46,875 nt of DNA from a virus (Duplodnaviria > Heunggongvirae > Uroviricota > Caudoviricetes): the IMG/VR virus record IMGVR_UViG_3300033068_001916; one strand, written 5' to 3'. The first letter of the stretch is position 1; every line of letters begins with the position of its first letter. The notes under the pieces are model-generated. The model was given only the letters and a program-made list of their open reading frames with translations. It searched no databases and was not told the DNA's origin. Positions 2,103 to 16,214 of this stretch are shown here, one piece after another. The position numbers were made by a program, and so were the translations under genes.

Positions 2103-3371
2103 ATGGAAAAAACACAAAAGGTAATAAGATTCGAGGAATATATTCTTGAGGCTAGAAAGAGATGGGATAATCTGAATGATAAAACCAGCGATATCTATAG
2201 AGCATTCGAAGAAAGCAACGAGGGTAAGGACCTAGCTTCTATTGGTGTTTATGTAGAGGAAAGAACTCCAAGTGTTCTTATATTCAAAAGAAGAGGTGGT
2301 CCAATGGCAACTGTTGAGGCATGGAAAGATGGAGATGGTAAATATTGCTATGAGTACACATCAAGTAAAAAGGGTGTTGAAAGATACAATCTTTCCAGAT
2401 TTGATACACCAACTGCATGTCTAAGAGGATTTCTTTTAAGAATCATAAGAAACAATATACCAGCCGCTATTATACCTAAAAAAGACATACCTAGTCTTAA
2501 CTTTAATGAGCTTGTTCCGATCGGGTCTCAAATGGCATTTCCTGAAATACTTTCTAGAATGAAAGGTGCGATAGGAGGAGAGGAATTAACAGACCTTGAT
2601 GCTAATGCAGTTCAGAAATTACCTATCATACAGAATCTTGAAGATATGGGAATGGTTGGTAGAAGAATTGATAACAGAGAAACTATTATTAAAAAAGTTG
2701 ATATCATTTCTCCTAAGTATAAATTCTATTCAAGAGCAGCATTTAGAGTTGGTGAGATATACGGTAAAACAATTGCCGGTATATTAAAAGTTAAATATGA
2801 CGATCTTAAAAAATCAAGTAAAGGTAAGGGACTATTATTTGATGATGGACAGGAAATATGGAGAGTTAATAACTCTAACCGTCTTCCTCTTAATAGTATT
2901 AATTATAGAACTGGTGACAATTCTGTTAAATGTAACATCCAAGACGAGGAAATATTTGGTTCTGTTTTTGTTTCTATATTCATTAGAACATTCAAGAGAG
3001 CTAAGGGAAGATATGAAAATGAAAAGTTAATAAATCCTAATTCTTATATATTAAGAAACGAGGGTCAGGAAACAATTGACGTTGCAACTGAGCTCAATGG
3101 ACTTTTATCTGATTACTTTACTGAGGCTGCAGGAAGATTGGAACCTACAATATTCATTAACCCTGAGGATGATGACAACAGACCTATAATGGATAATGCT
3201 AATGCATTATTAATTAAATATCTTATGAAACATGGATCGTCTGAGATAAGAGAGAGAATAATGAAAAATTCGGATCTTGATGAGCTTGTTTCGATTACTA
3301 CTAAACACGAGGATATTGACGATGCAACTAGAAAATTAATTAGAGTTTCTAGAGCTCTTAGATTCATTTAA
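2103..3371 (+). CDS. Hypothetical protein with capsid-targeting-like N-terminus
   Basis: 422 aa ORF; N-terminus KVIRFEEYILE; C-terminus RKLIRVSRALRFI. Confidence 0.75.
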   Translation: MEKTQKVIRFEEYILEARKRWDNLNDKTSDIYRAFEESNEGKDLASIGVYVEERTPSVLIFKRRGGPMATVEAWKDGDGKYCYEYTSSKKGVERYNLSRFDTPTACLRGFLLRIIRNNIPAAIIPKKDIPSLNFNELVPIGSQMAFPEILSRMKGAIGGEELTDLDANAVQKLPIIQNLEDMGMVGRRIDNRETIIKKVDIISPKYKFYSRAAFRVGEIYGKTIAGILKVKYDDLKKSSKGKGLLFDDGQEIWRVNNSNRLPLNSINYRTGDNSVKCNIQDEEIFGSVFVSIFIRTFKRAKGRYENEKLINPNSYILRNEGQETIDVATELNGLLSDYFTEAAGRLEPTIFINPEDDDNRPIMDNANALLIKYLMKHGSSEIRERIMKNSDLDELVSITTKHEDIDDATRKLIRVSRALRFI

Positions 3372-3616
3372 TGGAAGAGGTCAGCGAAAGAAAAAAACAG
3401 GATGTCTGTGAAGGATGCGGTAAACAGATAGCTGATCCTGAAAAAGAATGTCCAACATGCGGGACTTTTCCGCATAAGGCATATCACGAAAGAGCAGCAG
3501 CTAAAACACTAAATATTTCTAAGTGGGTTCAAAGCTCACCTGCCATGCAGCCAAATCAGAAATTAAGTGAAAATTTACCACCTCTGAGAAATATAATATC
3601 ATTTGATGATTTTTAA
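3371..3616 (+). CDS. Small zinc-ribbon protein
   Basis: CxxC...CxxC (CEGC, CPTC); start overlaps upstream stop. Confidence 0.65.
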   Translation: MEEVSERKKQDVCEGCGKQIADPEKECPTCGTFPHKAYHERAAAKTLNISKWVQSSPAMQPNQKLSENLPPLRNIISFDDF

Positions 3617-3647
3617 AAAAATTCCGGCACTGTCCGGAATTTTTTTT
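3615..3647. terminator. Intrinsic terminator, possibly bidirectional
   Basis: aaaaaaattccgg-cactgt-ccggaatttttttt. Confidence 0.8.
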
Positions 3648-3667
3648 GATATGTGAGTAGAATATTT

Positions 3668-4438
3668 ATGGAAAGAAAAAAAATAGGAATTGTAATATTA
3701 GCTACCAATTCGTACTTCGTACTTGGTATTAGATTTATAAAGAAATTCATTCATCACTATAAAGGTGATTGCGAGATTAAGTTCTACTTTTTCTCAGATA
3801 CGGATCCTTCCGATTATCTACAGGATTGTATAAATTTTGAGTATCACGAATCCAAACATAATAGCTGGGTTGATGCTACCAATGATAAATTTAGAAATAT
3901 AATCAATCTATCCGAATGCAGTAGTGATTATTTATATTATTTTGATGCTGATACCAGCGTATCCAAGGATTTTACTGAGGAATGGTTTATCGGCGATCTA
4001 GTAGGTGGTGAACATTATGGAAATAAAACGTGGCTAGCTAATGGAGTTGGATTTGATAGATTTGAATTGTCGAAGGCTTATGTTCCTTTGGATAGCACTT
4101 TACCGTATACCTATCATTATGGTGCATTCTTTGGCGGATTGAAGGGCAAGGTTGTTGATTTTTGTAAAACTCTTAGAGAATGGCAGATAGAGGATAAAAA
4201 AATACCATATGAACCTGGTGTTAATGATGAGAGCTACATAAATGCTTATTTTCATTTTAATCCTCCAACATATACAGTTTCATCTGAGAATTTCCAATTT
4301 GATATAAGCCATAAGGGAGGAATAGGTGAAACAAGAAACACAGATCTTGATATATCTAGGCTTAAATCGGAGATGCTTGGTTATAGAGACTTCACTTTCG
4401 ATATAATGGACAATGTAATAATACCGATCAACCGATGA
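3668..4438 (+). CDS. Glycosyltransferase family 6 (ABO-like)
   Basis: KIGIVILATNSY, YFDAD (DxD), YHYGAFFGG and NDESYINAYF match GT6 motifs. Confidence 0.8.
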   Translation: MERKKIGIVILATNSYFVLGIRFIKKFIHHYKGDCEIKFYFFSDTDPSDYLQDCINFEYHESKHNSWVDATNDKFRNIINLSECSSDYLYYFDADTSVSKDFTEEWFIGDLVGGEHYGNKTWLANGVGFDRFELSKAYVPLDSTLPYTYHYGAFFGGLKGKVVDFCKTLREWQIEDKKIPYEPGVNDESYINAYFHFNPPTYTVSSENFQFDISHKGGIGETRNTDLDISRLKSEMLGYRDFTFDIMDNVIIPINR

Positions 4439-5127
4439 TAAATTATCCAATAGTATTAACAAATATGAATAGACTTTCCACGTGTAAAAAAATGGTGGAG
4501 GATCTTTTTAAGCTTAATGGAAATAGCAGAATTAGTATAATAGATAATGCTTCGACATATCCGCCATTGCTCGATTGGTATCGTGAGATTGAAAGTGATG
4601 TTAATATTATAAGGAATCAAGTAAATGAAGGTCCATGGGCATTTTTCTATGGTGGAACTTTTTCTAGTATAGATGATGAAATATATGTATATTCTGATGC
4701 TGATCTTGAGCTGAATCCAAATATGCCATATAATTGGCAGGAGATAATGCTAGATTATATTAAAAAATATGACAGGAAAGCTTCTTTGGCTCTTAGAATA
4801 GACGATATACCAGATTCGTATGAATTTAAGGGAAATATACAGGATCATCAGAGTGTATGCTGGTATGACAGTGGTGAAGAGAATGTTTACAGAGCTATAA
4901 CCGATATGACATTCAGTATGGATATAAAATCAAAGGGTCATAGATATGATAGTGTTAGATTGGGTGGAGATTTTATGTGTAGACATATACCATGGTACAT
5001 AGATTTTAGTAATGTATCAGAAGAGGAAGAATATTATCTTAAAAATATAAATAGAGGGTACGATCAAGCAATGTATACATCTCTCCATTATGATAAATTA
5101 GTGCAAATTACCAATAAGTTAAAATAA
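4435..5127 (+). CDS. GT-A fold (family 2-like) glycosyltransferase
   Basis: IIDNASTYPPLLDWY and YVYSDAD (DxD) motifs. Confidence 0.7.
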   Translation: MINYPIVLTNMNRLSTCKKMVEDLFKLNGNSRISIIDNASTYPPLLDWYREIESDVNIIRNQVNEGPWAFFYGGTFSSIDDEIYVYSDADLELNPNMPYNWQEIMLDYIKKYDRKASLALRIDDIPDSYEFKGNIQDHQSVCWYDSGEENVYRAITDMTFSMDIKSKGHRYDSVRLGGDFMCRHIPWYIDFSNVSEEEEYYLKNINRGYDQAMYTSLHYDKLVQITNKLK

Positions 5128-5149
5128 ATTTCTTTTTATTTTTTTAATC

Positions 5150-5170
5150 CGCAATATTTTTTTATCTTTG
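5150..5170 (+). promoter_or_regulatory. Bacteroidota-type promoter (CG-N11-TAnnTTTG)
   Basis: TATCTTTG at 5163-5170, CG at 5150. Confidence 0.7.
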
Positions 5171-5174
5171 CAAT

Positions 5175-5459
5175 ATGAGGAAATCAAGAACAATCATCCA
5201 CGTAAATCAACATAACATAAAAGCCAATTCGAAGGGTGAAAATAGACCCGTTCTAACTTGTAAGACCAGTAAGGGAAACAAATATTCGAATGATGTAGTT
5301 ATATTGGGACAGGATGGGAAGGAAGCTGCAAGGGTGATATATTCACCAAATAATCCATTAGCGTGTGGTGCCAAAGTTTGGATAGAAACATTTAACGACG
5401 TCCAAATTAACAGCCCTATCGATGTAAAAGAAGCAACAAAAACGATTTGTAAGATATAG
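5175..5459 (+). CDS. Hypothetical phage protein
   Basis: 94 aa ORF directly after the promoter. Confidence 0.7.
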   Translation: MRKSRTIIHVNQHNIKANSKGENRPVLTCKTSKGNKYSNDVVILGQDGKEAARVIYSPNNPLACGAKVWIETFNDVQINSPIDVKEATKTICKI

Positions 5460-5461
5460 AG

Positions 5462-5860
5462 ATGGCAAGAAAAAAATCAAGTGCACACGTTGTAGTATTA
5501 AACAATAAGGGTCAGGTTCTTTGTGTTAGCAGAAAGGATGATCATAATGATTTCGGATTACCCGGCGGAAAAATCGAAAAAAGTGATCTCAACAATAAGG
5601 CAGCAGCTATAAGGGAAACACTAGAGGAAACCGGCATAATTGTAAAAGAAGCAAAATTGATATACGCTGAACATAGAAAGGGATCTATGGGTTATACATA
5701 TCTAGCAACCGAATGGTATGGTGATATTGGAACGGAAGAACCCCATGTTGTTAAGTGGGGAGAGTTTACAGATCTCATATCTGGAACATACGGTGAATGG
5801 AATCTTAAGGTTTTCAAGTCATTATCAGATTATAAAAAAACTAAAAATGGAAACAACTAA
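5462..5860 (+). CDS. NUDIX hydrolase
   Basis: LPGGKIEKSDLNNKAAAIRETLEETG, a slightly variant Nudix box. Confidence 0.8.
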   Translation: MARKKSSAHVVVLNNKGQVLCVSRKDDHNDFGLPGGKIEKSDLNNKAAAIRETLEETGIIVKEAKLIYAEHRKGSMGYTYLATEWYGDIGTEEPHVVKWGEFTDLISGTYGEWNLKVFKSLSDYKKTKNGNN

Positions 5861-6239
5861 AGGATACGTAGCAAGAAAAGATAATAATTGGATATTCAGA
5901 TGGGTGTATCTAATAGAGGATGGTGATTCTGTTCATATGAAGGAAGTACCGCTATCCCCCGAATATATTCATTCTGTTAATGATGGTGAAAGAGTTGAGG
6001 TTTATTTAGTGGAGGACGATCGCGGGGAACCAAAAATTGCAAGACTTGTACCAAGATCGCCATATGATCTACCATATTCTACAGATTTCCCAGATCTATG
6101 GGTTAAGAATGTTGAGGATGGATCTGTTCACGAGGTATTTAAGTATATAAAAAATATGGAAGGTGAGATTCATATATGGTGCACTACATGGTACGGACAC
6201 CATATAATTGGGAGAGATTGTATATTTACTAAAAAATAA
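5847..6239 (+). CDS. Hypothetical protein
   Basis: Track ORF 5718..6239; ATG 5847 (METTKG) avoids the long overlap with the NUDIX gene. Confidence 0.65.
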   Translation: METTKGYVARKDNNWIFRWVYLIEDGDSVHMKEVPLSPEYIHSVNDGERVEVYLVEDDRGEPKIARLVPRSPYDLPYSTDFPDLWVKNVEDGSVHEVFKYIKNMEGEIHIWCTTWYGHHIIGRDCIFTKK

Positions 6240-6248
6240 AATAAAAAT

Positions 6249-6872
6249 ATGAGAATGCCGATGAATAATTTTGATCAAATAAGAGATCTGCTGGATTTTT
6301 CTATCCCCGGTACCTTTTATTTTCTTCAAATACTAAAAAGACGTAAGGATAATCCGGATCTCGGGAAGGATATGATACACATAGCTGACTATTATATAGA
6401 CAGCTTAGTTAAATATGATGACCTGAAACCAATGATAATCAGACAATGCGAAGCAGAGAATGCTAGAGCATACTTCAGACTTAATCGTAGAGATGAAAAA
6501 CGTGTCGCTAGCGAGGCTTTAAAGCTTATGGTTGAATATGTGTTGTCTGAAAATTATAAGCCGGCTAGGAGCGTCTATGCATCATGTGCGGGTAAGTATC
6601 CGTCGGAAAAAAATAAGACATGGATAGTTGATTTGGATTGGGACGGAATACCACAAGGATTCACTAAAGAGATTTATATAGATTCCGTTATTTTTTCAAT
6701 TGAGTCGATAACCAAATCATACAAACCCGATGTTATCCAGAATATAACAAAGATACAAACTATGAATGGTATGCATCTTATAGTTAGTCCATTCAGACTG
6801 GATGAATTCGAAAAGCATTGGCCAAAAATAGACGTACATAAGGATAATCCAACTTGTTTATATCAACCTTAA
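6249..6872 (+). CDS. Hypothetical protein with AEP primase-polymerase-like motifs
   Basis: WIVDLD (DxD) and TMNGMH motifs; family assignment tentative. Confidence 0.45.
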   Translation: MRMPMNNFDQIRDLLDFSIPGTFYFLQILKRRKDNPDLGKDMIHIADYYIDSLVKYDDLKPMIIRQCEAENARAYFRLNRRDEKRVASEALKLMVEYVLSENYKPARSVYASCAGKYPSEKNKTWIVDLDWDGIPQGFTKEIYIDSVIFSIESITKSYKPDVIQNITKIQTMNGMHLIVSPFRLDEFEKHWPKIDVHKDNPTCLYQP

Positions 6873-6883
6873 AAACAAACAAT

Positions 6884-7312
6884 ATGAAAAAATTAGTGAG
6901 TATCGAACCGATTGCAGTAAAGGATAAAAATGATGTTGTTAGTGCATTAAGAATTCTTGAAAAATTAGGAATTCATAGAATGACGGAGGAGCAAAAGGAA
7001 AATTACCTTGCCGATGAAAATAGAACCGTTGATAACAACTTCATGATGCAGGAGGAAGATGGTGGATTTAGAATACAATCACATTATATAGGATTTGGAA
7101 TTTCGATAGAAAGTCTAGAAAAACAAGTTAACGATATACTCGAAAAGTATCCTAATATTTGCGAGAAACTTGTTGAAATAGAAAACAAGAGAGCTGAACT
7201 TGAAGAGGAGGTTGAGAATAAAAGAAAGCAACTAGAGAAAGAGATAAGAGACATCGAAATTGAAATAGATGATCTTGAGGAGTCCAATTCTATCATAGAA
7301 TTAAAGGAATAA
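6884..7312 (+). CDS. Hypothetical protein with C-terminal coiled coil
   Basis: Track ORF 6854..7312; ATG 6884 preferred; E/K-rich heptads. Confidence 0.65.
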   Translation: MKKLVSIEPIAVKDKNDVVSALRILEKLGIHRMTEEQKENYLADENRTVDNNFMMQEEDGGFRIQSHYIGFGISIESLEKQVNDILEKYPNICEKLVEIENKRAELEEEVENKRKQLEKEIRDIEIEIDDLEESNSIIELKE

Positions 7313-7332
7313 TAGCTGAAAGTAATATAAAA

Positions 7333-7683
7333 ATGAGGGACCCAAATTTTAAAATAGGACAGATTGTTTATCATCGGGATATTTACGATCACAGAGAACC
7401 TCTAAAAATAGTAGGTATAAGAGAGACTGAATTAGAATTGGAAGGTGATTATTCAGGAGGAACCCACGGGGTTAGACAGAAACAATGGATGCCGATAAAA
7501 GGTGTCTCAAGAATTAGAGATCATAAGTACAAGAAGGAATGCAGAGACTTTGCAGTTGGAGTTGATGAATTAGCAAAACCTATTACTGACAGAAATCAGG
7601 ACAATATGACAAAAACTATGTTTGATTTGCTTGACATGGTTTTTAAACTTACTAATGACGTTTCACTTAATCCTGAGTCCTAA
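7333..7683 (+). CDS. Hypothetical protein
   Basis: 116 aa ORF in the operon. Confidence 0.65.
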   Translation: MRDPNFKIGQIVYHRDIYDHREPLKIVGIRETELELEGDYSGGTHGVRQKQWMPIKGVSRIRDHKYKKECRDFAVGVDELAKPITDRNQDNMTKTMFDLLDMVFKLTNDVSLNPES

Positions 7684-7685
7684 TT

Positions 7686-7901
7686 GTGGATTTAAAACTA
7701 TTTTTTACATTAGAAATAAACGAATGGAGAAGGAGATGGGAATTTATACCTAATGATGATGTAAGTTCAATTTGTTATTCAGTCAGTTTTAGTGATGCAG
7801 AGAATGAGGATTCTGCCTGGGTAATACTAGATCGGGCTGTTAGAAAAAGTTCCTCGTTCCACTTCAAAAAATTTTATTTTATAGATATACTTAAAGAATG
7901 A
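7686..7901 (+). CDS. Hypothetical protein, last gene before the array
   Basis: 71 aa ORF, GTG start; resembles cassette ORF 11076..11261. Confidence 0.55.
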   Translation: MDLKLFFTLEINEWRRRWEFIPNDDVSSICYSVSFSDAENEDSAWVILDRAVRKSSSFHFKKFYFIDILKE

Positions 7902-7923
7902 CCACAAAACTTAAAATTAATAA

Positions 7924-7961
7924 AAACTTTATGTGGTATTTCACATATACCTTGTTATAAA
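7924..7961 (+). repeat. Half attC-like site H0 (right arm only)
   Basis: 37/38 nt identical to the right arm of H5 (9768-9805); no left arm upstream. Confidence 0.8.
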
Positions 7962-7972
7962 CTGTAAAAATT

Positions 7973-8176
7973 ATGAAATTAATAAAAAATATAGTAAAAA
8001 CTGATTTTATAACTTCTACAAATATACTTTTACTAAAAGGTCAGGAAGTTAGAACTATTTACACTCCTGATTCTGTTCACGGGGATAGATTTATAGATAT
8101 TTGGAGGTGCATTGATGGTTCGTATTGTGGTGGCTTAAATCCAAGATTAGAAGCTGATTATTTAGAAGAAATTTAA
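7973..8176 (+). CDS. Cassette ORF C1, hypothetical
   Basis: 67 aa, between GTTA 7954 and TAAC 8208. Confidence 0.65.
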   Translation: MKLIKNIVKTDFITSTNILLLKGQEVRTIYTPDSVHGDRFIDIWRCIDGSYCGGLNPRLEADYLEEI

Positions 8177-8207
8177 TATTAAACGCATTTTTGGATAAAC
8201 TTTTACA

Positions 8208-8336
8208 TAACGTTCGAGTGCTTTACGTCCGTTGTGGCTAAATAAGCACTAAACTTTCCTGTTATCACGAAATTAAACTGATGCAAAACAATAATTAAAT
8301 CAATCACAATGTAGCAATAGCGTGTAATTGCTGTTA
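8208..8336 (+). repeat. attC-like site H1 (129 bp, chimeric)
   Basis: Left 85 nt are 81/85 identical to H12, but the right arm differs and does not pair with the left arm. Confidence 0.75.
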
Positions 8337-8348
8337 TAAGTAGCTTTT

Positions 8349-8630
8349 ATGATTAGAAAATATAAAATAATAGCAGAAGTAGAAATAGATATTCAAAAGA
8401 TTTTTAAAGACAATATAAAAGATTATATAGAAGATGATAGTATTTCAGATGAAGCGTATGCAACTCAATCTATCTATGGCGTAATACGAGATGGATGTAC
8501 TGAACAAGTAAAGGATAGATGTGAGTGGATGTTTAAAGACTGTTACGACCAGATAAAGCACCATAAGGAAGTAGATGTTTTAATTGGTAAAGAAATACTA
8601 AAAAGTCTAAAGATAAACGTTATCGAGTAA
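8349..8630 (+). CDS. Cassette ORF C2, hypothetical
   Basis: Flanked by gttataagtaGct and agTtacttataac. Confidence 0.7.
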   Translation: MIRKYKIIAEVEIDIQKIFKDNIKDYIEDDSISDEAYATQSIYGVIRDGCTEQVKDRCEWMFKDCYDQIKHHKEVDVLIGKEILKSLKINVIE

Positions 8631-8639
8631 AGTTACTTA

Positions 8640-8767
8640 TAACGTTTCCACAGCTTTGCGAGGTTGCGACCTAAAAACTTAAAATTTACAAACACAAAAT
8701 ACACTTAAAATGAGCAAAAATATTTCAAATACAGACCAAACCAAGCAATCTTGCAAAATTGGTGTTA
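8640..8767 (+). repeat. attC-like site H2 (128 bp)
   Basis: tttgcgaggttgc pairs with gcaatcttgcaaa; contains ATG 8710. Confidence 0.8.
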
Positions 8768-8964
8768 GTGGCAGTCTTTCTAAACGTGAAAAGCTATCAC
8801 TTTTATCAGCCGATATTTTTGCAAGGAGAAAAGATTATAATTTTCATTTAACAAGTGAATTGTGTGCCGTTATTTGGCTTTTGGGTAAAGGAACTAAAAA
8901 CGAATATGATTGTAAGGAAATTATAAATTCTGTTTATTCACAGTTCTTTCAAGATTGCCACTAA
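8710..8964 (+). CDS. Cassette ORF C3 with hairpin-encoded leader
   Basis: Starts inside H2, reads through GTT as Val (KIG-VSGS), stops at the TAA of TAAC. Confidence 0.7.
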   Translation: MSKNISNTDQTKQSCKIGVSGSLSKREKLSLLSADIFARRKDYNFHLTSELCAVIWLLGKGTKNEYDCKEIINSVYSQFFQDCH

Positions 8965-9259
8965 CGGTTGCAAATAAAAATATGTAAAATTAACGGATAT
9001 GGAAGATAAACTAAAAAAACATTTGAATTTTTGTAAAAAGTATCCAGAAACAATAGTAGGATATGAACAAGGTATAAATGTTTCATATTATTTGATGGAA
9101 GGGAACACACCACAAGTGGATTATTTCAAGGTTGGTGATTTAGTTAAAATGTATAATGAAAATCCAAATGTTTTTTCTGAATATAAAAACTTAAAAGATG
9201 ATTGGAACGATTTAATAACCACTGAAGGTAGTTAATTTTATTGTTTTTATTTGTTGTTA
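8962..9259 (+). repeat. attC-like site H3 (298 bp) with an ORF in its loop
   Basis: Left arm caaataaaaatatgtaaaattaac pairs with right arm gttaattttattgtttttatttg. Confidence 0.75.
8999..9235 (+). CDS. ORF inside the loop of H3, hypothetical
   Basis: 78 aa; the stop TAA is supplied by the right arm. Confidence 0.65.
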   Translation: MEDKLKKHLNFCKKYPETIVGYEQGINVSYYLMEGNTPQVDYFKVGDLVKMYNENPNVFSEYKNLKDDWNDLITTEGS

Positions 9260-9284
9260 TGTTCTCGTTTTAATGGAACATAAC
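9256..9284 (+). other. Empty 29-bp inter-site segment C4
   Basis: gttatgttc-tcgttttaatg-gaacataac. Confidence 0.8.
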
Positions 9285-9407
9285 GTTGAAGCATAACTGT
9301 AGTTTAGGATAAGTAAGCCTAATCTATCGAAGTTAAAAACCAAGTTCACAAGTACAAAAACAATTATAAATCAAGCCTGATACCTAAATTACTGTTATGC
9401 AGTGTTA
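9281..9407 (+). repeat. attC-like site H4 (127 bp)
   Basis: gcataactgtagtttagg pairs with cctaaattactgttatgc. Confidence 0.8.
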
Positions 9408-9434
9408 GGGTTAGGTTTTTTAAACATTTACATT

Positions 9435-9719
9435 ATGAAAAGCGAGGAATATAGAATTGTATTAAACAATGTGTTTGAAACAAAAGAAATTGGAAAAGAA
9501 TATTTTGACAGAATTTTATTGGATTTTGCAATGGCATACCATAAAGAGCAATTAGGTATACTTAATGAAAACACTTTTAATAAAGAAAAGTTTGGCGAAT
9601 TAGCTATTATTTTTTTAAATGATTTGCAAAATAAAGAGATTAATTGTAAACATAATTTAGATATAAACGGAGAATGTTTAAATAATTTCTACCAATGGCT
9701 GTGTAAAAATTACAGCTAA
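9435..9719 (+). CDS. Cassette ORF C5, hypothetical
   Basis: ATG 9435; stops at the TAA of TAAC; segment ends only partly complementary. Confidence 0.65.
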   Translation: MKSEEYRIVLNNVFETKEIGKEYFDRILLDFAMAYHKEQLGILNENTFNKEKFGELAIIFLNDLQNKEINCKHNLDINGECLNNFYQWLCKNYS

Positions 9720-9801
9720 CGACTGGGTATATGTGAAGTACCCAACGACAGACTTAATAATTAGTAGAAACTTTATGGGGTATTTCACATATACCTTGTT
9801 A
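9717..9801 (+). repeat. attC-like site H5 (85 bp)
   Basis: ggtatatgtgaagtaccc pairs with gggtatttcacatatacc. Confidence 0.85.
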
Positions 9802-9816
9802 TAAAACGTTTATTTT

Positions 9817-10104
9817 ATGGTAGAATTTAAAAATCCTTTGGTTAGGGTAAGATGTTTGGAATGTAGAGAAGAACATTTTATTGAAATGAAACATATTGGA
9901 ACTGATAAAGAACAAAGAAGTATTGGTTTTGAATATGAACACATATATAGAGGTGAATTAAAATGTTCTCATTGTGGGGAAGATATGAGATTATTAACAA
10001 CGATATTTGAATTTCCAAAAGTATTTTTAAATTATCACGAAACGAATAATGAATCTTGTTTAGTGATGGATGATATTACAGATGATTCGTTAAATGTTTT
10101 ATAA
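9817..10104 (+). CDS. Cassette ORF C6, zinc-ribbon protein
   Basis: CLEC...CSHC; flanks gttataaaacGttta and taaaTgttttataac. Confidence 0.7.
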   Translation: MVEFKNPLVRVRCLECREEHFIEMKHIGTDKEQRSIGFEYEHIYRGELKCSHCGEDMRLLTTIFEFPKVFLNYHETNNESCLVMDDITDDSLNVL

Positions 10105-10361
10105 CGTTTTGCAAATAGGCTTAGTAAAATTAAACTTAATGAAATATAATTATGAAAGGCAAATTACGAGAAATTCAAGCATACAGTAGTAATTCAAGTG
10201 ATGAATTGGATTATAAAAATAAATACTGGTTTCATCAATGGATTGGAAAAACAACTGCTTTAATTGAAGATGAGCATGGGAAATTGATAAAAGCTAAACA
10301 CACAGAATTTCGTTTTAAGACGGATGCTGATGTTTAATTTTATTGAGCCTATTTGCTGTTA
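10102..10361 (+). repeat. attC-like site H6 (260 bp) with an ORF in its loop
   Basis: gcaaataggcttagtaaaattaaac pairs with gtttaattttattgagcctatttgc (two G:T). Confidence 0.8.
10152..10337 (+). CDS. ORF inside the loop of H6, hypothetical
   Basis: 61 aa; the stop is supplied by the right arm. Confidence 0.6.
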   Translation: MKGKLREIQAYSSNSSDELDYKNKYWFHQWIGKTTALIEDEHGKLIKAKHTEFRFKTDADV

Positions 10362-10386
10362 TGGCATCGTTTTAATGTACCATAAC
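10358..10386 (+). other. Empty 29-bp inter-site segment C7
   Basis: gttatggca-tcgttttaatg-taccataac. Confidence 0.8.
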
Positions 10387-10497
10387 GGTTTGCAGATAAA
10401 AGCAGTTTTAAACTAAAATTAAATAATATGGACGAAAGTAAAATTATGGAAGATAACTCAAATAGAAGTGATGAAAAATTGCTTTTATCTGCTGTTA
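10383..10497 (+). repeat. attC-like site H7 (115 bp)
   Basis: gcagataaaagcagtttt pairs with aaaattgcttttatctgc; contains ATG 10428. Confidence 0.85.
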
Positions 10498-10682
10498 TGC
10501 GTAGTGCTTCTGAAATAGAAGAACGACTACGATGTGCGTTGGCTGGATTTGAACACTCAAAAGAATGTGGTGATATTGAAACAGCAAAAGAATATCAGAA
10601 AGACGCTGGTGTTCTATTTTGGGTGTTGGGTCGTAGTGGTAGTTATGAATATAAGGATGGTAAAATTACGTTGTGTGATTAG
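10428..10682 (+). CDS. Cassette ORF C8 with hairpin-encoded leader
   Basis: Reads through GTT as Val (LSA-VMRS). Confidence 0.7.
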   Translation: MDESKIMEDNSNRSDEKLLLSAVMRSASEIEERLRCALAGFEHSKECGDIETAKEYQKDAGVLFWVLGRSGSYEYKDGKITLCD

Positions 10683-10691
10683 CATTACGCA

Positions 10692-10820
10692 TAACGTTTT
10701 GCAGCTTCATTTCAGTTGCGTACCTAAGCACAAAGAAAACAAATAATCACTTAATAAAATTTAAAAAAATGAACAATTCAGATACAAACCAAGCGAAGCA
10801 ATTGAATGAAACTGCTGTTA
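10692..10820 (+). repeat. attC-like site H8 (129 bp)
   Basis: gcagcttcatttcagttgc pairs with gcaattgaatgaaactgc; contains ATG 10769. Confidence 0.85.
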
Positions 10821-11071
10821 ACAGTAGTATTTTTTATAACGCTTTTATAGGTAAAAAAGATTCAAACGGAATTGAATTAAAAAACGGAGATAATATAATT
10901 ATTGAGGTTTGTAAGCCTGATGGTGCTAATAGAAATGGAGTTTACCACAAAGGACAAATAATATATGAAAATTGTTCTTTCTCAATTAAAATGAAAAGAA
11001 GTGAAGAAACATTTGATACAAATCCTTTATCAAATTATGCTTCATATTGTAAAATAAATTTAAACAATTAA
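10769..11071 (+). CDS. Cassette C9 ORF a with hairpin-encoded leader
   Basis: Reads through GTT as Val (ETA-VNSS). Confidence 0.7.
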   Translation: MNNSDTNQAKQLNETAVNSSIFYNAFIGKKDSNGIELKNGDNIIIEVCKPDGANRNGVYHKGQIIYENCSFSIKMKRSEETFDTNPLSNYASYCKINLNN

Positions 11072-11075
11072 TAAA

Positions 11076-11261
11076 ATGGACTTAAGAAAACAATTCAAAG
11101 TTACAGACGATGTAGATAATAAAAGATTCGTCTTTGATTCAGTAGACAATAATTCTTGTTCTTATACGGTTGCGTATTACGAATGTGATTCTGACGAGTC
11201 TAATGCTTGGATTTGTGTTTGGAAAGCGAAAAAAGGAGAAATTGAACGAGCTTCTGTTTAA
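11076..11261 (+). CDS. Cassette C9 ORF b, hypothetical
   Basis: Second ORF within one segment (gttaacagtaGtatt ... aataTtactgttaac). Confidence 0.6.
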   Translation: MDLRKQFKVTDDVDNKRFVFDSVDNNSCSYTVAYYECDSDESNAWICVWKAKKGEIERASV

Positions 11262-11270
11262 TATTACTGT

Positions 11271-11318
11271 TAACGTCTGATGATAAACAATCGTTTTAAT
11301 GTTGTTTATCATTTGTTA
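11271..11318 (+). repeat. attC-like site H9 (48 bp, minimal)
   Basis: atgataaacaa-tcgttttaatg-ttgtttatcat. Confidence 0.8.
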
Positions 11319-11385
11319 TGTGTAGTTATCATTCTGGAAACATCTTATAAAAATACAGATATAATAAACAAAAATAAATAAATAT

Positions 11386-11907
11386 ATGAAACTAATAAAC
11401 GAAACTTTCTTAATTGATACCTTTGATAAAGTATTAAAATCAGGTGATTTACAAAAATTGGTAAATGTTAAAAAATCAGAATCTAATGAATTAGAAGAAC
11501 ATTTGATTTCTATTTCAATTACTTCTGATCAACATAAATTGATTAGATCCCTGAATATAGATGAAAAAACGGAAGAGTATCTATTATCTGAGCTCAAAGA
11601 TTATTTTTTCAAAAAAATACTAGATTTTGTTTATTCCAACTCGACAATATTAGATAAGAACGAGTTGTATCAGAATATAGATAATCAAATAGTGATAGGT
11701 AGTTCTGGTGCAATTATGGATATTCCTGAAAATGTATCTACGATTTTAGATTATAATAAAAGTTTCAGTGACAAAACATTAGTAGTCACAGATAGTGTTG
11801 ATTTAATTTTAGATTACAATTCGATAAAAATACAAACAATTGGTATGGGAGGATTTGCTCCTAAGATGATTTTGAAATTTAGTTTTTGTTTAGCTGACAC
11901 AGAGTGA
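11386..11907 (+). CDS. Cassette ORF C10, hypothetical
   Basis: 173 aa; flanks pair at 16/18 plus two G:T. Confidence 0.7.
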   Translation: MKLINETFLIDTFDKVLKSGDLQKLVNVKKSESNELEEHLISISITSDQHKLIRSLNIDEKTEEYLLSELKDYFFKKILDFVYSNSTILDKNELYQNIDNQIVIGSSGAIMDIPENVSTILDYNKSFSDKTLVVTDSVDLILDYNSIKIQTIGMGGFAPKMILKFSFCLADTE

Positions 11908-11917
11908 TAATTACACA

Positions 11918-12046
11918 TAACGATACTCAGATATATTTAGGTTTTCATTTTTAATATATACTAAAAATAATTTAACAATATGAAAAATAATAAACATGTA
12001 GAAAGTTTCGGAAAATTCAATGAAAACTTGAATATATCTGATGTTA
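11918..12046 (+). repeat. attC-like site H10 (129 bp)
   Basis: tcagatatatttaggttttcatt pairs with aatgaaaacttgaatatatctga; loop contains ATATATACTA and ATG 11980. Confidence 0.85.
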
Positions 12047-12228
12047 GTGAGAGTAAAAAATCAAATCTAAAAATAAATAAATTTCTTGAGGAATTAACAA
12101 TAATATCTCAAAAGTATAATATTTATTTAGATACAACTGATGATATGTTTATGACTGATGATAGTGGTGATATTGGTAGTATTAAATATGACGACAATCT
12201 AAATAAATATATTTATCAGAAATATTGA
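11980..12228 (+). CDS. Cassette ORF C11 with capsid-targeting-like leader encoded by H10
   Basis: MKNNKHVESFGKFNENLNISD-VSES. Confidence 0.7.
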   Translation: MKNNKHVESFGKFNENLNISDVSESKKSNLKINKFLEELTIISQKYNIYLDTTDDMFMTDDSGDIGSIKYDDNLNKYIYQKY

Positions 12229-12242
12229 TTTTTAATTATCAC

Positions 12243-12360
12243 TAACGTTCGATGGCTTGTAGCAGAACGTATAATTAAAAACAAACATTACAGACACAAA
12301 AGAATTATTAACCAACGATGGCAAAGTAGCCTAAAGTAGTTTTGCTACAAACCATTGTTA
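12243..12360 (+). repeat. attC-like site H11 (118 bp)
   Basis: atggcttgtagcagaac pairs with gttttgctacaaaccat. Confidence 0.85.
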
Positions 12361-12374
12361 TAAACAGTTATTTT

Positions 12375-12680
12375 ATGATTATAGTAAACTATTACCGAGA
12401 AGAAGATTGCAACCCTGAAACAGATGGTTATCATTTGCATTTAGCTGGTGTAATAAACGATACTTTAGATTTGCAATATGATATACAATTAATTACAGAT
12501 TGTATTGATAACGATATTAATTTTGAACCTAAAAATGGTATTTTATACGAATTACAATTGACAAGAGCAACTATTCAAGCAGACCCAGTTGATGAGCCAG
12601 CTTTTGCAATTAGAGAAATTATTGAATTAAAAAGATGTAAACATACTGGCGAATTTTCTCCTGAGTTAGTTCGGCTATAA
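12375..12680 (+). CDS. Cassette ORF C12, hypothetical
   Basis: ATG 12375 (track ORF starts at TTG 12342). Confidence 0.65.
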   Translation: MIIVNYYREEDCNPETDGYHLHLAGVINDTLDLQYDIQLITDCIDNDINFEPKNGILYELQLTRATIQADPVDEPAFAIREIIELKRCKHTGEFSPELVRL

Positions 12681-12687
12681 TTGTTTA

Positions 12688-12816
12688 TAACGTTCGAGTG
12701 CTTTACGTCCGTTGTGGTTAAATAAGCACTAACCTTTCCTGTTATCACGAAACAAAACTGATGCAAAACAAATTTAATATTAAACCTAAACCCACAATGG
12801 CGTAAAACACTTGTTA
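12688..12816 (+). repeat. attC-like site H12 (129 bp)
   Basis: agtgctttacgtccgttgtgg pairs with ccacaatggcgtaaaacact. Confidence 0.85.
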
Positions 12817-12841
12817 TGCCTAGTGCTTAAAATCAGAAATT

Positions 12842-13096
12842 ATGCAAACAAAAAAAGGATGGCATAAATCAGGACTTGATTTAACAGAATATTTAGATGA
12901 ACCTTGTGAAATTAACGAGGAATTATTTAATTACATACTAGAATGTACAGCTCCACAATATTTAGATTACGGATTAGGACAAACTGGAGAAGCTGAAAAA
13001 CACGAAGATGGTGTTGGATATTATATGACAGTTTCTTTCGTAAATAACAAGCACTTTTATTTAGGAATTTTACCAGAGTTCGTTCAGTCGCATTAG
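12842..13096 (+). CDS. Cassette ORF C13, hypothetical
   Basis: Flanks gttatgcctaGtgc and gcaTtaggcataac. Confidence 0.7.
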   Translation: MQTKKGWHKSGLDLTEYLDEPCEINEELFNYILECTAPQYLDYGLGQTGEAEKHEDGVGYYMTVSFVNNKHFYLGILPEFVQSH

Positions 13097-13099
13097 GCA

Positions 13100-13228
13100 T
13101 AACGGACGGCGTGTATGAGAAGTGGCGTGCCCACAAACACTAATATTAACTAAAAAACACTAACAAACCCAATAAATACAGTATTTAACAAGTGTGCCCA
13201 AAGTAGCCATTTTTTATACACGATGTTA
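13100..13228 (+). repeat. attC-like site H13 (129 bp)
   Basis: cgtgtatgagaagtggc pairs with gccattttttatacacg. Confidence 0.85.
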
Positions 13229-13258
13229 GTAGCTGTGTTTATTAAAGAATTTTAAAAT

Positions 13259-13483
13259 ATGGGAGATTTATTAGAATTAATGCAAGAATTTGAAAAAAGA
13301 AACAACACTTCAATATCCTTAGATTTATGTAGTGATGGGTCAGGAACTTTAAAAGAGTTTTGGGATGGTGATGAAATAAAATCGTTTGAAAATTCGTCTG
13401 AATTACGCTCGTTTTTAGCGAACGGAAAATTGAAAATGAAAGATGGTCGTTCTGTTAAACCTATTAAGATAGTGGCTCAATAA
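13259..13483 (+). CDS. Cassette ORF C14, hypothetical
   Basis: Flanks gttagtagctGtgtt and aacaTagctactaac. Confidence 0.7.
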   Translation: MGDLLELMQEFEKRNNTSISLDLCSDGSGTLKEFWDGDEIKSFENSSELRSFLANGKLKMKDGRSVKPIKIVAQ

Positions 13484-13492
13484 CATAGCTAC

Positions 13493-13618
13493 TAACGTTT
13501 TGCTACTACAAGCAGTAGCGTGCTGAAAAGCCTAAATTATCGGAGTTTGCCCGAACAAAGCAAGTGCAAAAAAATAATAACCAAAGCCAAATGAAGCTAT
13601 TGATTGTAGTAGCTGTTA
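13493..13618 (+). repeat. attC-like site H14 (126 bp)
   Basis: gctactacaagcagtagc pairs with gctattgattgtagtagc. Confidence 0.85.
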
Positions 13619-13645
13619 TACAACGGTTTTTAAACATCATTAATT

Positions 13646-13915
13646 ATGAAAACTAATAAACAATATAGATTTAAAGACAATCCAAAAGAAAAAGAATTTC
13701 ACGATAAATTCAAAGAAATGTTTGAAAGTAACGGAGTGACAGATAAAACTCTTTCATCAATAGTTTTTGGATGGAAAGATGATAGACAAAATGTTCCTGC
13801 AAAATATCTAACAGAAAAAGAAAAAGATATTTGCTTAAATATAATACAATGGTTAGGTTCTCCTGTTGGAAGCGGATTTCTTCGTGACTGCGGATTTTCT
13901 GAAACTGTTGTATAA
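13646..13915 (+). CDS. Cassette ORF C15 (recombinase-proximal), hypothetical
   Basis: Flanks gttatacaacGgttt and aaacTgttgtataac; stops at the TAA of TAAC. Confidence 0.7.
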   Translation: MKTNKQYRFKDNPKEKEFHDKFKEMFESNGVTDKTLSSIVFGWKDDRQNVPAKYLTEKEKDICLNIIQWLGSPVGSGFLRDCGFSETVV

Positions 13916-13968
13916 CTATATTATATATGTAATAAAATGTAACCCGTTAATTTTCAACAAGTTATATA
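13913..13968 (+). other. Candidate attI-like insertion site
   Basis: TAAC not followed by the usual hairpin; contains aaaatgtaac-cc-gttaatttt and a GTTA 8 nt before the recombinase ATG. Confidence 0.45.
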
Positions 13969-14772
13969 ATGAAAAATCAAAAAATTATAAAGATCTGTAA
14001 AGAAAAGTTTATATATTTAAACTATTCACCTAGAACAAGAGATAATTATATATCTCACATAAAACATTTTTTAGAAAGCTTAGAGGATAAACAGATCGTA
14101 CATTGTAATTCTTCTGATTTTCAATCATATTTGGATAATTACGACTTTACATCAGTCTCTCAACAAAACCAAATTATTAACTCTATTAGATTCTTATACA
14201 AAGAAGTATTGAATAAAAAGTATGATAAAGTTTCCTTTAGGAGGCCTAGATCCGAAAAGAAATTACCTAAAGTAATAGATGGTAATTTTATTAAAAAACA
14301 ATTAGGTAGTATTAAAAATCTAAAACATAAAGCGATACTCACCTTAACATATTCAGTCGGATTAAGAGTCTCCGAAATAGTAAATCTAAAAATTATAGAT
14401 ATTGATTCTAAAAGAATGTTAATTCATATAAAAAATGCTAAAGGTCGAAAAGATAGAATTGTACCTTTATCTCAAATTGTTTTAGAACTATTAAGAGAAT
14501 ATTTCAAAGAATATAAACCAAAAGAATTCTTATTCAATGGTCAAAACTCCCTACAATACTCAGTAGGGAGCTGTCAAAAGATTTACAAAAAGTATATCGA
14601 TAATAAATCATCTATACACACTTTAAGGCATTCCTCATTCACAAATTTATTAGAATCGGGGACAGATTTAAGAATAATACAGAAGATTGCGGGACATTCG
14701 AGTTCAAAAACAACAGAAATTTATACTCACGTTTCTAACAACCTTTTATCCAGGGTTAAATTACCAATATAA
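13969..14772 (+). CDS. Tyrosine recombinase/integrase, compact Xer-like, putative cassette integrase
   Basis: Intact catalytic set: GLRVSE, AKGRKDR, HTLRH, AGH, EIY; N-terminal SAM-like region YSPRTRDNY; no IntI insertion. Confidence 0.95.
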   Translation: MKNQKIIKICKEKFIYLNYSPRTRDNYISHIKHFLESLEDKQIVHCNSSDFQSYLDNYDFTSVSQQNQIINSIRFLYKEVLNKKYDKVSFRRPRSEKKLPKVIDGNFIKKQLGSIKNLKHKAILTLTYSVGLRVSEIVNLKIIDIDSKRMLIHIKNAKGRKDRIVPLSQIVLELLREYFKEYKPKEFLFNGQNSLQYSVGSCQKIYKKYIDNKSSIHTLRHSSFTNLLESGTDLRIIQKIAGHSSSKTTEIYTHVSNNLLSRVKLPI

Positions 14773-16214
14773 TGACTACGAAGAGAAAGAAAAAACCAAT
14801 AGTTGATATAGATGTTCTAAATTCAGATCAAAGGGAAGCTTTTGAAAATCTGAGAGACTTTATATGCGACACCAGTGACGAAAATGTTTATGTTCTTAAA
14901 GGATGGGCAGGTACAGGTAAAACATTTTGTATAAGTGTTCTTGTTAGGTACATTTTAGAAGTCGTTCATCCCAAAAGTGCTTGGTATAAGATAGCTGTAA
15001 CCGGACCAACAAACAAGTCGGTTAGAGTTATAAAGAAAACTAGTAATCTTAGGAATCCTAGAGTTACGTTCCAAACTATACACAAACTTCTTGGACTAAC
15101 AGAGAAGATAACAAATGATGGGCAACAGGTTTTTGTGAATCAGGGGAAAAATTTCAAACCTCAGATCAACTCGATTAAGCTTTTAATTATAGATGAGGTT
15201 TCAATGCTTAATGATGAACTTTTCCACGAGGTTCTTAAATATAGAGACAAGCTAAAGATTATCTGTATGGGAGATCCCGCACAAATCCCGCCGGTTGGAA
15301 AACCTGACTGTATTCCCTTCAGAGACGAGCTAGCAGATGTATATGGTATAAAAACTATCCAGCTGAAAAGAATAATGAGACAGAAGGAGGGTAATGCAAT
15401 AATAGAATCATCCGTTAAAATTAGAGAGGATCTTTGGTCTGAAAGAAATCCGGTTCCCACAGTTACGTCTTTGAATAGCCTAGGTGAGGGTGTAGAATTT
15501 TTAAATCTCAACGATAGTGAAACCAGAAAAGGATTTGGTGATATACTTTCCAAATATTTTAAATCTGAAGAATTCAACAAGGATCCTGAATATTGCAAAA
15601 TAATCGCATGGAGGAATAAAACTGTTACCAGCATGAATAACATCGTCAGAAGGATTCTTTTTGGCGAGGAAGAGAGTAAAACAAAAATTTTGGTAGGTGA
15701 GAAATTGATTGCCAATACACCTATAATCATACAGGGAAATCTTATATTATTTAATACCAATGATGAATTTTCAGTTGAATCGACAAATATAAGAGAAAAA
15801 AATATGGCTCTTAAAACATTCTCCCCCGTTGTCGAGGTTAAACTAAAATATTATGATGCAGTTGTTAGTTATCTGAATGACGAAGACGAGATTGAAAAAA
15901 CATCAATAGAGATTCTCCACGAGGACAGTCAGATCGAATTTGCTAAGATTGCAAATCTTCTTAAATTGAAGGCGATAGAAAAAAAAGGTAGAGACAGGAG
16001 CTGGCTTGATTATTATGATTTTATGAGAAACTTTGCTGATGTGAGCTTTGCATATGCTATAACTGCACACAAAAGTCAGGGAAGTACATATAACACGACA
16101 TTTGTAATTGAGGATGATATCGACGAAAACTATAATGTCGTTGAAAGAAATAGGATTAAGTATACTGCTTATACAAGATCAAGCAAGAAAGTTTATGTTT
16201 TAAAAAGATTTTAA
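14772..16214 (+). CDS. dda: SF1B DNA helicase, Dda/RecD2-like
   Basis: GWAGTGKT, IIDEVSM, GDPAQIPPV, YAITAHKSQGST, YTAYTR. Confidence 0.85.
   Translation: MTTKRKKKPIVDIDVLNSDQREAFENLRDFICDTSDENVYVLKGWAGTGKTFCISVLVRYILEVVHPKSAWYKIAVTGPTNKSVRVIKKTSNLRNPRVTFQTIHKLLGLTEKITNDGQQVFVNQGKNFKPQINSIKLLIIDEVSMLNDELFHEVLKYRDKLKIICMGDPAQIPPVGKPDCIPFRDELADVYGIKTIQLKRIMRQKEGNAIIESSVKIREDLWSERNPVPTVTSLNSLGEGVEFLNLNDSETRKGFGDILSKYFKSEEFNKDPEYCKIIAWRNKTVTSMNNIVRRILFGEEESKTKILVGEKLIANTPIIIQGNLILFNTNDEFSVESTNIREKNMALKTFSPVVEVKLKYYDAVVSYLNDEDEIEKTSIEILHEDSQIEFAKIANLLKLKAIEKKGRDRSWLDYYDFMRNFADVSFAYAITAHKSQGSTYNTTFVIEDDIDENYNVVERNRIKYTAYTRSSKKVYVLKRF

Follow-up and report, generated by a model that had tools for sequence, protein, structure and literature searches.

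A probable integron-type gene-cassette array with hairpin-first units beside a short Xer-like recombinase gene in a Flavobacterium-type phage

The IMG/VR virus record IMGVR_UViG_3300033068_001916 (Caudoviricetes; 46,875 nucleotides, referred to here as the window) contains, at positions 7924 to 13916, a succession of 16 small open reading frames (ORFs) that are all co-directional with the tyrosine recombinase gene that follows them and are spaced by imperfect palindromes. The 5' end of these palindromes reads [A/C]TAACG and lies at or shortly past the stop codon of the preceding ORF (stop codons fall 0 to 33 nt ahead of the TAAC box or within it), and the 3' end reads TGTTA[T/G] and is mostly found 11 to 36 nt upstream of the next ATG. 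On the + strand, TAACG occurs 19 times between 8208 and 13729, compared with about once per 1.5 to 2 kb elsewhere, and a caller for TAAC...GTTA hairpins returned 12 matches in 8640-13618 versus a single one in the other ~42 kb of the window. That lone match, at 6745-6786, lies in or beside the ORF 6249-6872 and possibly arose by chance. Downstream of the array come, in this order, a 56-nt unstructured stretch (13913-13968), the gene for the 267-aa recombinase (13969-14772), and a gene for a RecD2/Dda-like helicase. The array comprises 14 hairpin+ORF units and one truncated distal unit, and we read it, with a probability of roughly 85%, as an integron-type gene-cassette array on a Flavobacterium-type phage, the units of which are inserted at TAAC by the Xer-like recombinase acting on the folded coding strand.

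A search of IMG/VR yielded 210 relatives of the recombinase, and 80 loci (62 to 87% identity; designated here by L and a number) were taken for comparison. In nearly all related loci that include upstream DNA, TAACG boxes on the + strand are piled up before the recombinase gene and not after it, which repeats the layout of the window, where the first-pass annotation had already remarked on the downstream, co-directional position of the recombinase. In 484 units of related arrays, the longest ORF lies on the + strand and reads towards the recombinase in 398 cases and away from it in 25.

Three independent lines of comparison, namely the ends of the units, the segments shared between arrays, and the recombinase-proximal junction, agree on which hairpin goes with which ORF. 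We compared the 8 nt that follow GTTA with the 8-nt tail that precedes the next TAAC, using the adjacent upstream tail and random tails as controls. In 417 units, this 8-nt flank paired with the tail of its own unit at 6.05 of 8 positions, whereas with the tail that immediately precedes the hairpin it paired at 4.16 of 8, the same as with random tails (4.16 of 8; paired Wilcoxon p=6e-37). In the window, own-end pairing amounted to 100 of 112 positions versus 52 of 112 for the adjacent tails, was perfect (8/8) in 10 of the 14 units, and included a T·G wobble at the seventh pair position in 12 of them. Complementarity of this kind is the argument that historically fixed the crossover point of integron cassettes: the ends of a unit match because circularisation brings them together. 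Each unit therefore consists of C, hairpin, GTTA, cargo, tail, and TAA, and this includes the last unit at 13496-13915, as had been predicted at first pass from the idea that each hairpin belongs to the ORF after it and not to the one before. Circularly permuted units with complementary ends and a crossover in a conserved core, the hallmarks of integron cassettes, are all found here.

Segments shared between phages have the same boundaries. An all-versus-all comparison of the arrays gave 75 ends of ORF-containing high-scoring segment pairs, 43 of which start at TAACG and 2 near TGTTAT; whenever an ORF-containing match terminates at a box, that box is TAACG. Units that are 99.4% identical in L052 and L062, and 100% identical in L022 and L070, sit among unrelated neighbours and break off in or right beside TAAC on both sides, and a unit shared by L017 and L031 (99.9% identity, with breaks at TAAC) directly abuts the recombinase-proximal site in L031. 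In the window, 9709-10112 (unit C5) is 88% identical to a segment of L044 and 10382-10696 (unit C7) is 90.5% identical to a segment of L067, each from TAAC to TAAC. At the protein level, too, homologous ORFs retain the hairpin ahead of them, and their homology does not extend past the TAAC that follows, which answers the question, posed with the first-pass annotation, of which hairpin travels with a shared ORF. A test of the flanks of 98 homologous ORF pairs, many of them syntenic, gave 9 pairs with only the upstream flank conserved and 4 with only the downstream flank, too few to decide the matter alone; among the downstream-only pairs located in arrays, inspection found none that retains the downstream hairpin past TAAC. 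The breaks in shared units and the end complementarity both agree with the proposed crossover within TAAC and point to TAA|C as the probable phosphodiester.

The recombinase-proximal end of the array is marked by a junction that is constant among relatives. Alignment of about 70 loci revealed the motif TAAC-TATnATATAT roughly 55 nt ahead of the recombinase ATG; upstream of the motif, the sequences are unrelated. In the window, this attI-like insertion site (13913-13968, + strand) shows no significant fold on either strand (z scores of +0.48 and -0.30), and the last ORF (13646-13915) has a hairpin before it (13493-13618) and none after, as originally noticed. Contigs from three other metagenomes (runs X1, X2, and X3) that carry a near-identical recombinase diverge from the window at 13912/13913. 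On this comparative evidence, 13913-13968 would be an integrase-adjacent primary insertion site. The cultured Polaribacter phages of the Freya group, with an integrase 35% identical to the window recombinase, carry inserts directly upstream of the integrase gene that measure 0, 842, 1744, and 4921 nt in Freya_1, 2, 5, and 10, respectively. These inserts are nested, have their distal part in common, and are joined right after AAC in every case; the array of Freya_8 is that of Freya_10 except for one missing internal unit of ~0.9 kb, and the phages are otherwise 99.6 to 100% identical. The Freya isolates (L002 and L163-L170) represent a single phage species, the first unit of which ends in a GTTGTAAAC...GTTTACAAC hairpin. 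The junction at TAAC, in the aligned loci and the three metagenomes, and the nested Freya inserts are what would be expected from the predicted growth of the array at its recombinase-proximal end. With insertion next to the recombinase, the newest unit would be the recombinase-proximal one, presumably C14 in the window.

In the probable source sample of the window (run X23), a contig of depth 13 (main depth about 82) has a canonical hairpin and 9 further nt fused directly to the insertion-site TAAC (11328/13913), and 13913 is precisely where the unitig graph branches; this joint may reflect a variant array or a co-occurring relative. Contig joints of this type (11328 to 13913; 8350 to 8628) were set aside, as one side is only 20 to 30 nt long and they are not assignable to this phage as opposed to a relative.

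In the related loci, the conserved part of the hairpins is mainly structural. Among 290 unique hairpins, the TAAC/GTTA boxes are conserved and loops range from 11 to about 100 nt, and in the first 20 stem columns ~80% of the positions form Watson-Crick pairs and another 11% form G·T pairs. The hairpins share an asymmetric bubble of 4-5 x 1 nt beside the TAAC/GTTA pair, the longer part of which is on the 5' side. The site profile, ATTRNNNM-TAAC-GKTT for the 5' half and T-GTTA-K for the 3' half, agrees with the RYYYAAC/GTTRRRY boxes in the AAC/GTT core only. Paired boxes within an imperfect palindrome, a spacer left unpaired, a loop that varies, and weak conservation of sequence are also the features of attC-type sites. 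An Rfam search at E values of up to 0.1 returned no family. From TAAC to GTTA, hairpins in L003-L082 fall into three length classes, of 48, ~88 (85 to 90), and ~126 (124 to 130) nt, which are separated by steps of ~40 nt.

The arms also differ between the strands. The preference of G·T wobbles for the coding strand, claimed at first pass for the window and counted there as 24 on the + strand versus 4 on the - strand (by hand, from arm alignments), extends to the 290 unique hairpins, in which 642 wobbles on the + strand compare with 113 on the - strand (5.7-fold; binomial p about 1e-90). Wobble hot spots are fixed stem positions, with conserved wobbles in both arms. The wobbles of the + strand are A·C mismatches on the other strand, so that the + strand is expected to be the one that folds and reacts. 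Comparison of the minimum free energies (MFE) of the two strands favoured the + strand in 10 of the 14 window hairpins, by about 1 kcal/mol, a weak effect. Sequence comparison thus shows where the units begin and end, where insertion takes place, and that the pairing is biased towards one strand.

The hairpins and the ORFs overlap in several units. As the first-pass annotation had pointed out, some hairpins supply start codons to the following ORFs: the sole plausible ATG of the ORFs at 8710, 10769, and 11980 lies in a hairpin loop, from which these ORFs continue across the 3' arm and the GTTA box, and the ORF at 10428 starts either in the loop or at an ATG that overlaps the GTTAT box. Two other ORFs, 8999-9235 and 10152-10337, lie entirely within hairpin loops, so that units C3 and C6 have the ORF in the loop rather than in the cargo slot. 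Both are followed by a 29-bp palindrome (9256-9284 and 10358-10386), in each case 3' of the ORF-in-loop hairpin family that begins with TAACGKTTGCAAATA, an association recognised at the outset. The palindrome is the stem that the two ends of a unit form with each other (GTTAT plus 4 nt; 4 nt plus ATAAC), here closing the 11-nt filler TCGTTTTAATG. In L008, L009, L022, L051, and run X1, this palindrome lies immediately next to the insertion site. The filler sequence is found at 11289-11299, 9265-9275, and 10367-10377, both as the loop of the commonest 48-nt hairpin family and as the filler of empty slots, a conservation that spans two distinct structural contexts.

All units lie on the + strand, and their hairpins are numbered here as the units are. 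The truncated distal unit C0 (7924-8210) retains the 3' arm and TGTTAT (7924-7958) of an H5-family hairpin and an ORF (7973-8176) and has an own-end pairing of 3/8; it is devoid of the TAAC box and the 5' arm, and 7901-7978 matches only the 3' half of full hairpins (8 loci). C1 (8211-8642; H1, 8208-8336; ORF 8349-8630; 8/8) has a chimeric hairpin, with a 5' arm of the H12 family and a 3' arm like that of a hairpin of phage lillamy9-1. It is followed by C2 (8643-8964; H2, 8640-8767; ORF 8710-8964, started in the loop; 8/8), C3 (8965-9283; H3, 8962-9259; 6/8), with the 29-bp palindrome as its cargo slot, and C4 (9284-9719; H4, 9281-9397; ORF 9435-9719), which may be a chimeric unit, its ends being mismatched (own-end pairing 2/8, adjacent 5/8). 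C5 (9720-10104) consists of H5 (9717-9801; fold z score of -3.6) and the ORF 9817-10104, with 8/8 pairing. C6 (10105-10385), with H6 at 10102-10361, is covered by a contig of run X1 that matches 10100-10386 and then departs from the window sequence. C7 (10386-10694; H7, 10383-10497; ORF 10428-10682) pairs 8/8, and C8 (10695-11273; H8, 10692-10820) pairs 8/8 across two ORFs (10769-11071 and 11076-11261). C9 (11274-11920; ORF 11386-11907; 8/8) has the canonical 48-nt hairpin H9 (11271-11318; fold z score of -3.6), with TCGTTTTAATG as its loop, and the H9 family is the most widespread one among the related loci. In C10 (11921-12245; H10, 11918-12046; 7/8), the ORF 11980-12228 starts in the loop, and at C11 (12246-12690; H11, 12243-12360; ORF 12375-12680; 8/8) the homology to lillamy9-1 begins abruptly at TAAC. 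C12 (12691-13102; H12, 12688-12816; ORF 12842-13096) and C13 (13103-13495; H13, 13100-13228; ORF 13259-13483) both pair 8/8, as do the ends of C14 (13496-13915; H14, 13493-13618; ORF 13646-13915), which were also found as an inverted repeat.

The recombinase is of the Xer/IntI type, with the Pfam domains Phage_integrase and SAM_4, but stays under every NCBIfam cut-off (XerA_Arch, the best, 169 bits against 220; IntI TIGR02249, 151 against 265; XerC/D, 140 against about 330). Its match to TIGR02249 comes in two stretches that skip the IntI-specific insertion, and in the comparison with VchIntIA (2a3v) its residues 178-210 face chain residues 180-260, with about 48 residues missing; the additional domain specific to IntI (the I2 helix) is absent. 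Its best solved relative is XerA of P. abyssi. Homologues from bacterial genomes reach at most 51% identity, and simple motif counts, restricted to the box forms TAACG and TGTTAT, showed no enrichment there; chromosomal arrays with other box variants may exist. The helicase gene (14772-16214), which encodes an SF1B (superfamily 1B) enzyme of the RecD2/Dda-like kind, overlaps the recombinase stop codon. It was rejected as a partner of the recombinase: none of the related loci has a homologue directly downstream, and three carry one elsewhere.

The window locus is phage DNA, and two of its hairpins have counterparts of 77 to 83% identity in Flavobacterium phages from the Baltic, lillamy9-1 among them. 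The genome of this cultured Flavobacterium phage (L001; MN812212) contains, at 3333-10324, a ~7-kb hairpin-first cassette array with two DNA methyltransferase genes among its cargo. This array terminates with an ATAAC-TACAATATTA remnant resembling the insertion site, and no recombinase homologue was found in that genome. A Pfam search assigned none of the 16 window cassette ORFs (16/16) to a family. The cargo represents a large pool of unannotated small phage genes, and the methyltransferases of the lillamy array make host-takeover or anti-defence functions plausible. Cassette spacers in L016 (about 2600-2740) and L070 (about 7100-7250) contain GGTTCGAnTCC motifs that resemble tRNA T-arms; they were rejected as tRNAs, as ARAGORN calls none.

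These data suggest the following scheme. A cassette would start with the C of a TAAC box, stop with the TAA of the following box, and consist of the 4-5 x 1 nt bubble, the long imperfect stem with its loop of 11 to about 100 nt, GTTA, the cargo, whose start codon often lies within the hairpin, and the 8-nt tail ATTRNNNM. In the circular unit, the tail and TAA would pair with GTTA and the 8-nt flank to give a ~12-bp arm beside the cleavage point; the folded coding strand would then present this arm, a central bubble starting from the C of TAAC, and a longer second arm, and so imitate the core site of a tyrosine recombinase. The 267-aa recombinase would exchange strands within TAAC, most likely at TAA|C, the boundary between the arm and the central region, and the circles would be inserted at TAAC-TATnATATAT, about 55 nt before the recombinase start codon. 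We infer from these patterns the single-stranded folding, the reactivity of the + strand, the exact phosphodiester, the circular intermediate, and the role of this recombinase as the catalyst. The cargo being sense to the recombining strand, the array would be transcribed towards the recombinase, with the newest unit last in the transcript and each hairpin in the 5' leader of its own gene.

Several observations weigh against this interpretation. By MFE, hairpins of the ~126-nt class are no more stable than shuffled sequence, and the long-loop hairpin H14 is indistinguishable from its shuffles. C4 and C0 are without matching ends, H1 is chimeric, and a minority of the shared segments start at a GTTAT box or at an ATG (L045/L070, L011/L023, and the X3 contig at 13224-13497), which implies that other exchange routes, or exchange within hairpins, also occur. 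Metagenome contigs could be chimeric at repeated hairpins, although breaks within a shared 4 to 6 nt cannot arise in this way. The recombinase is devoid of the I2 insertion, and no other feature is known so far by which a tyrosine recombinase can read attC hairpins, nor are intermediates known (PMC7790495). The circle, the cleavage, and the strand-specific reaction are deduced rather than observed, and the + strand is also the mRNA strand, so that both the stems and the G·T bias could have a role in RNA.

If the stems did act in RNA, for example as structures that flank the cistrons of a long early transcript and serve processing, stability, or translation control, modules would be exchanged by ordinary phage mosaicism and the recombinase would simply be the lysogeny integrase of the phage. 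The folding strand is indeed the sense strand, G·U pairs are stable in RNA, start codons are found in loops, and integrases of this kind have been read as markers of a temperate lifestyle (PMC8776804). We nevertheless regard this explanation as very unlikely: it does not account for breakpoints in an invariant 4-nt box or for units that are 99 to 100% identical amid unrelated sequence, for a variable/constant junction fixed before the recombinase in about 70 loci and in clonal Freya isolates, or for complementary unit ends, which a circular recombination intermediate requires. RNA roles may coexist with recombination but leave the junctions unexplained. Scarcely credible is the classical polarity on the + strand, in which every hairpin would belong to the ORF ahead of it, crossover would take place at G|TTAT, where the hairpin has its 3' end, and the non-coding strand would be reactive. 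It would explain why stop codons lie 0 to 33 nt before TAAC or inside it, in the manner of integron cassette ORFs that abut attC, and why a few shared segments (L045/L070; the X3 contig) start at a GTTAT box. It is contradicted already by the end-complementarity test, in which the tail ahead of a hairpin pairs with the flank at the random level and the tail past the downstream ORF almost perfectly, as well as by the loss of the downstream hairpin from shared ORFs at TAAC, the last ORF without a hairpin after it, a conserved site that starts at TAAC, ORF starts inside the upstream hairpin, and the wobble bias in favour of the + strand.

Another alternative keeps the units and the crossover box as described and has them recombined as conventional double-stranded DNA or as cruciforms, with no folded single strand. 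It suits an Xer-like enzyme without I2 and an unstructured insertion site, and Xer and attI x attI reactions use duplex DNA (PMC7790495). However, the arms have no conserved sequence for duplex recognition, and what is conserved is the pairing, the bubble geometry, and the length classes; a 5.7-fold excess of wobbles on one strand and fixed T·G positions would be pointless for a duplex or for symmetrical cruciforms. We consider this option rather unlikely and favour recombination of the folded coding strand.

A search of a literature library found no description of a recombinase-linked hairpin-first system or of its polarity, and clusters of attC sites lacking integron integrases (CALINs) are already known from phages (PMC9892861). 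Comparative evidence ties a compact I2-less enzyme to hundreds of structure-defined phage hairpin cassettes, which bears on the view that I2 is what enabled a tyrosine recombinase to read folded attC sites (PMC7790495). The polarity leads to exact and testable predictions, namely cassette coordinates, circle junction sequences, the reactive strand, and the insertion point. It likewise explains why, in flavobacterial phages, tools trained on IntI detect no more than scattered attC-like sites. The integrase genes that mark Freya, Ingeline, and Leef as temperate in the published genome paper (PMC8776804) may instead, or also, encode cassette recombinases, and the published reading of the Freya integrase as a temperate marker may need revision. 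It is a tentative idea, to which we give somewhat less than even odds, that these arrays form a large, essentially phage-borne lineage of integron-type platforms, in which a short I2-less Xer-like recombinase recombines the folded coding strand and the hairpin doubles as mRNA leader and start, and that this lineage is either a relative of a pre-I2 integron ancestor or an independent invention. A pre-I2 relative would bear on the proposed viral origin of integrons. With either origin, the hairpin would be both the 5' leader and the start site of the cargo mRNA, and mobility would be coupled to expression.

Among known systems, integrons with inverted integrases, such as those of Treponema, have the integrase gene co-directional with the cassettes, as here; the integrase is still upstream of attI and the array, unlike the phage locus, where the array comes first and the recombinase after it. 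Integration of single-stranded CTX phage DNA by XerCD, as an integrative mobile element exploiting Xer (IMEX), also relies on an I2-less Xer enzyme and on a single strand that, once folded, resembles a duplex core site whose central region is imperfect (PMC7790495). In that case, however, a whole genome enters the host dif site by means of host enzymes, whereas here the enzyme is phage encoded and there are many heterogeneous hairpins in a cassette array. Xer/dif systems have a XerC/D/A/H/S-type recombinase that acts on a ~28-bp dif-like duplex site; the phage enzyme scores below the cut-offs for both XerA_Arch, its best match, and XerC/D, and the sites recognised in this analysis are hairpins. 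The CALINs reported by Qi et al. in 2023 (PMC9892861) are attC-like clusters in virulent and temperate phages, including a Polaribacter phage, and the lillamy9-1 array is just such a recombinase-less array. That study used IntI-trained attC models, reported few sites per phage, and drew no link to a non-IntI recombinase, an insertion site, or a polarity.

The closest parallel is with classical integrons, especially sedentary chromosomal ones. Both systems have small, mostly unannotatable genes that alternate with imperfect palindromes. These palindromes have AAC...GTT boxes, R-like and L-like stems on either side of a bubble, and a variable loop; the systems also share a crossover in a conserved AAC, cassette ends that are complementary when circular, and an insertion site that adjoins the recombinase gene. 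The phage system differs in its 267-aa recombinase without I2, in start codons that are often placed in the hairpin, and in having a phage as the carrier. Extrahelical bases are typical of attC, and nothing similar was seen in the phage hairpins, whose unpaired bases form the 4-5 x 1 bubble beside the cleavage site and which have fixed G·T wobbles. In classical integrons it is the bottom strand of attC that is recombined, and this selectivity orients the cassettes for expression from the Pc promoter (PMC8946536). The phage cargo instead has the folding strand as its sense strand, and its transcription runs towards the recombinase, as the orientation of all 16 window ORFs and of most units in related arrays indicates, so that a Pc-type promoter at attI cannot drive it. 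The system therefore departs from integrons in I2 and in the orientation of cargo and promoter, and conforms to them in site architecture, the logic of circular permutation, and an integrase-adjacent site. For a further integron trait, recombination of one folded strand with replicative resolution, the wobble bias of 642 to 113 gives indirect evidence. A classical intI gene is divergent from its cassettes, and its sense strand is the bottom strand. Read 5' to 3', that strand presents the array, attI, and intI in the sense direction, with units made up of C, hairpin, GTTRRRY, cargo, and RYYYAA, and the + strand of the window has the same form. The mirror-image polarity proposed in the first-pass annotation thus holds for the orientation of the cargo genes and not for the geometry of recombination, which is that of the classical bottom strand.

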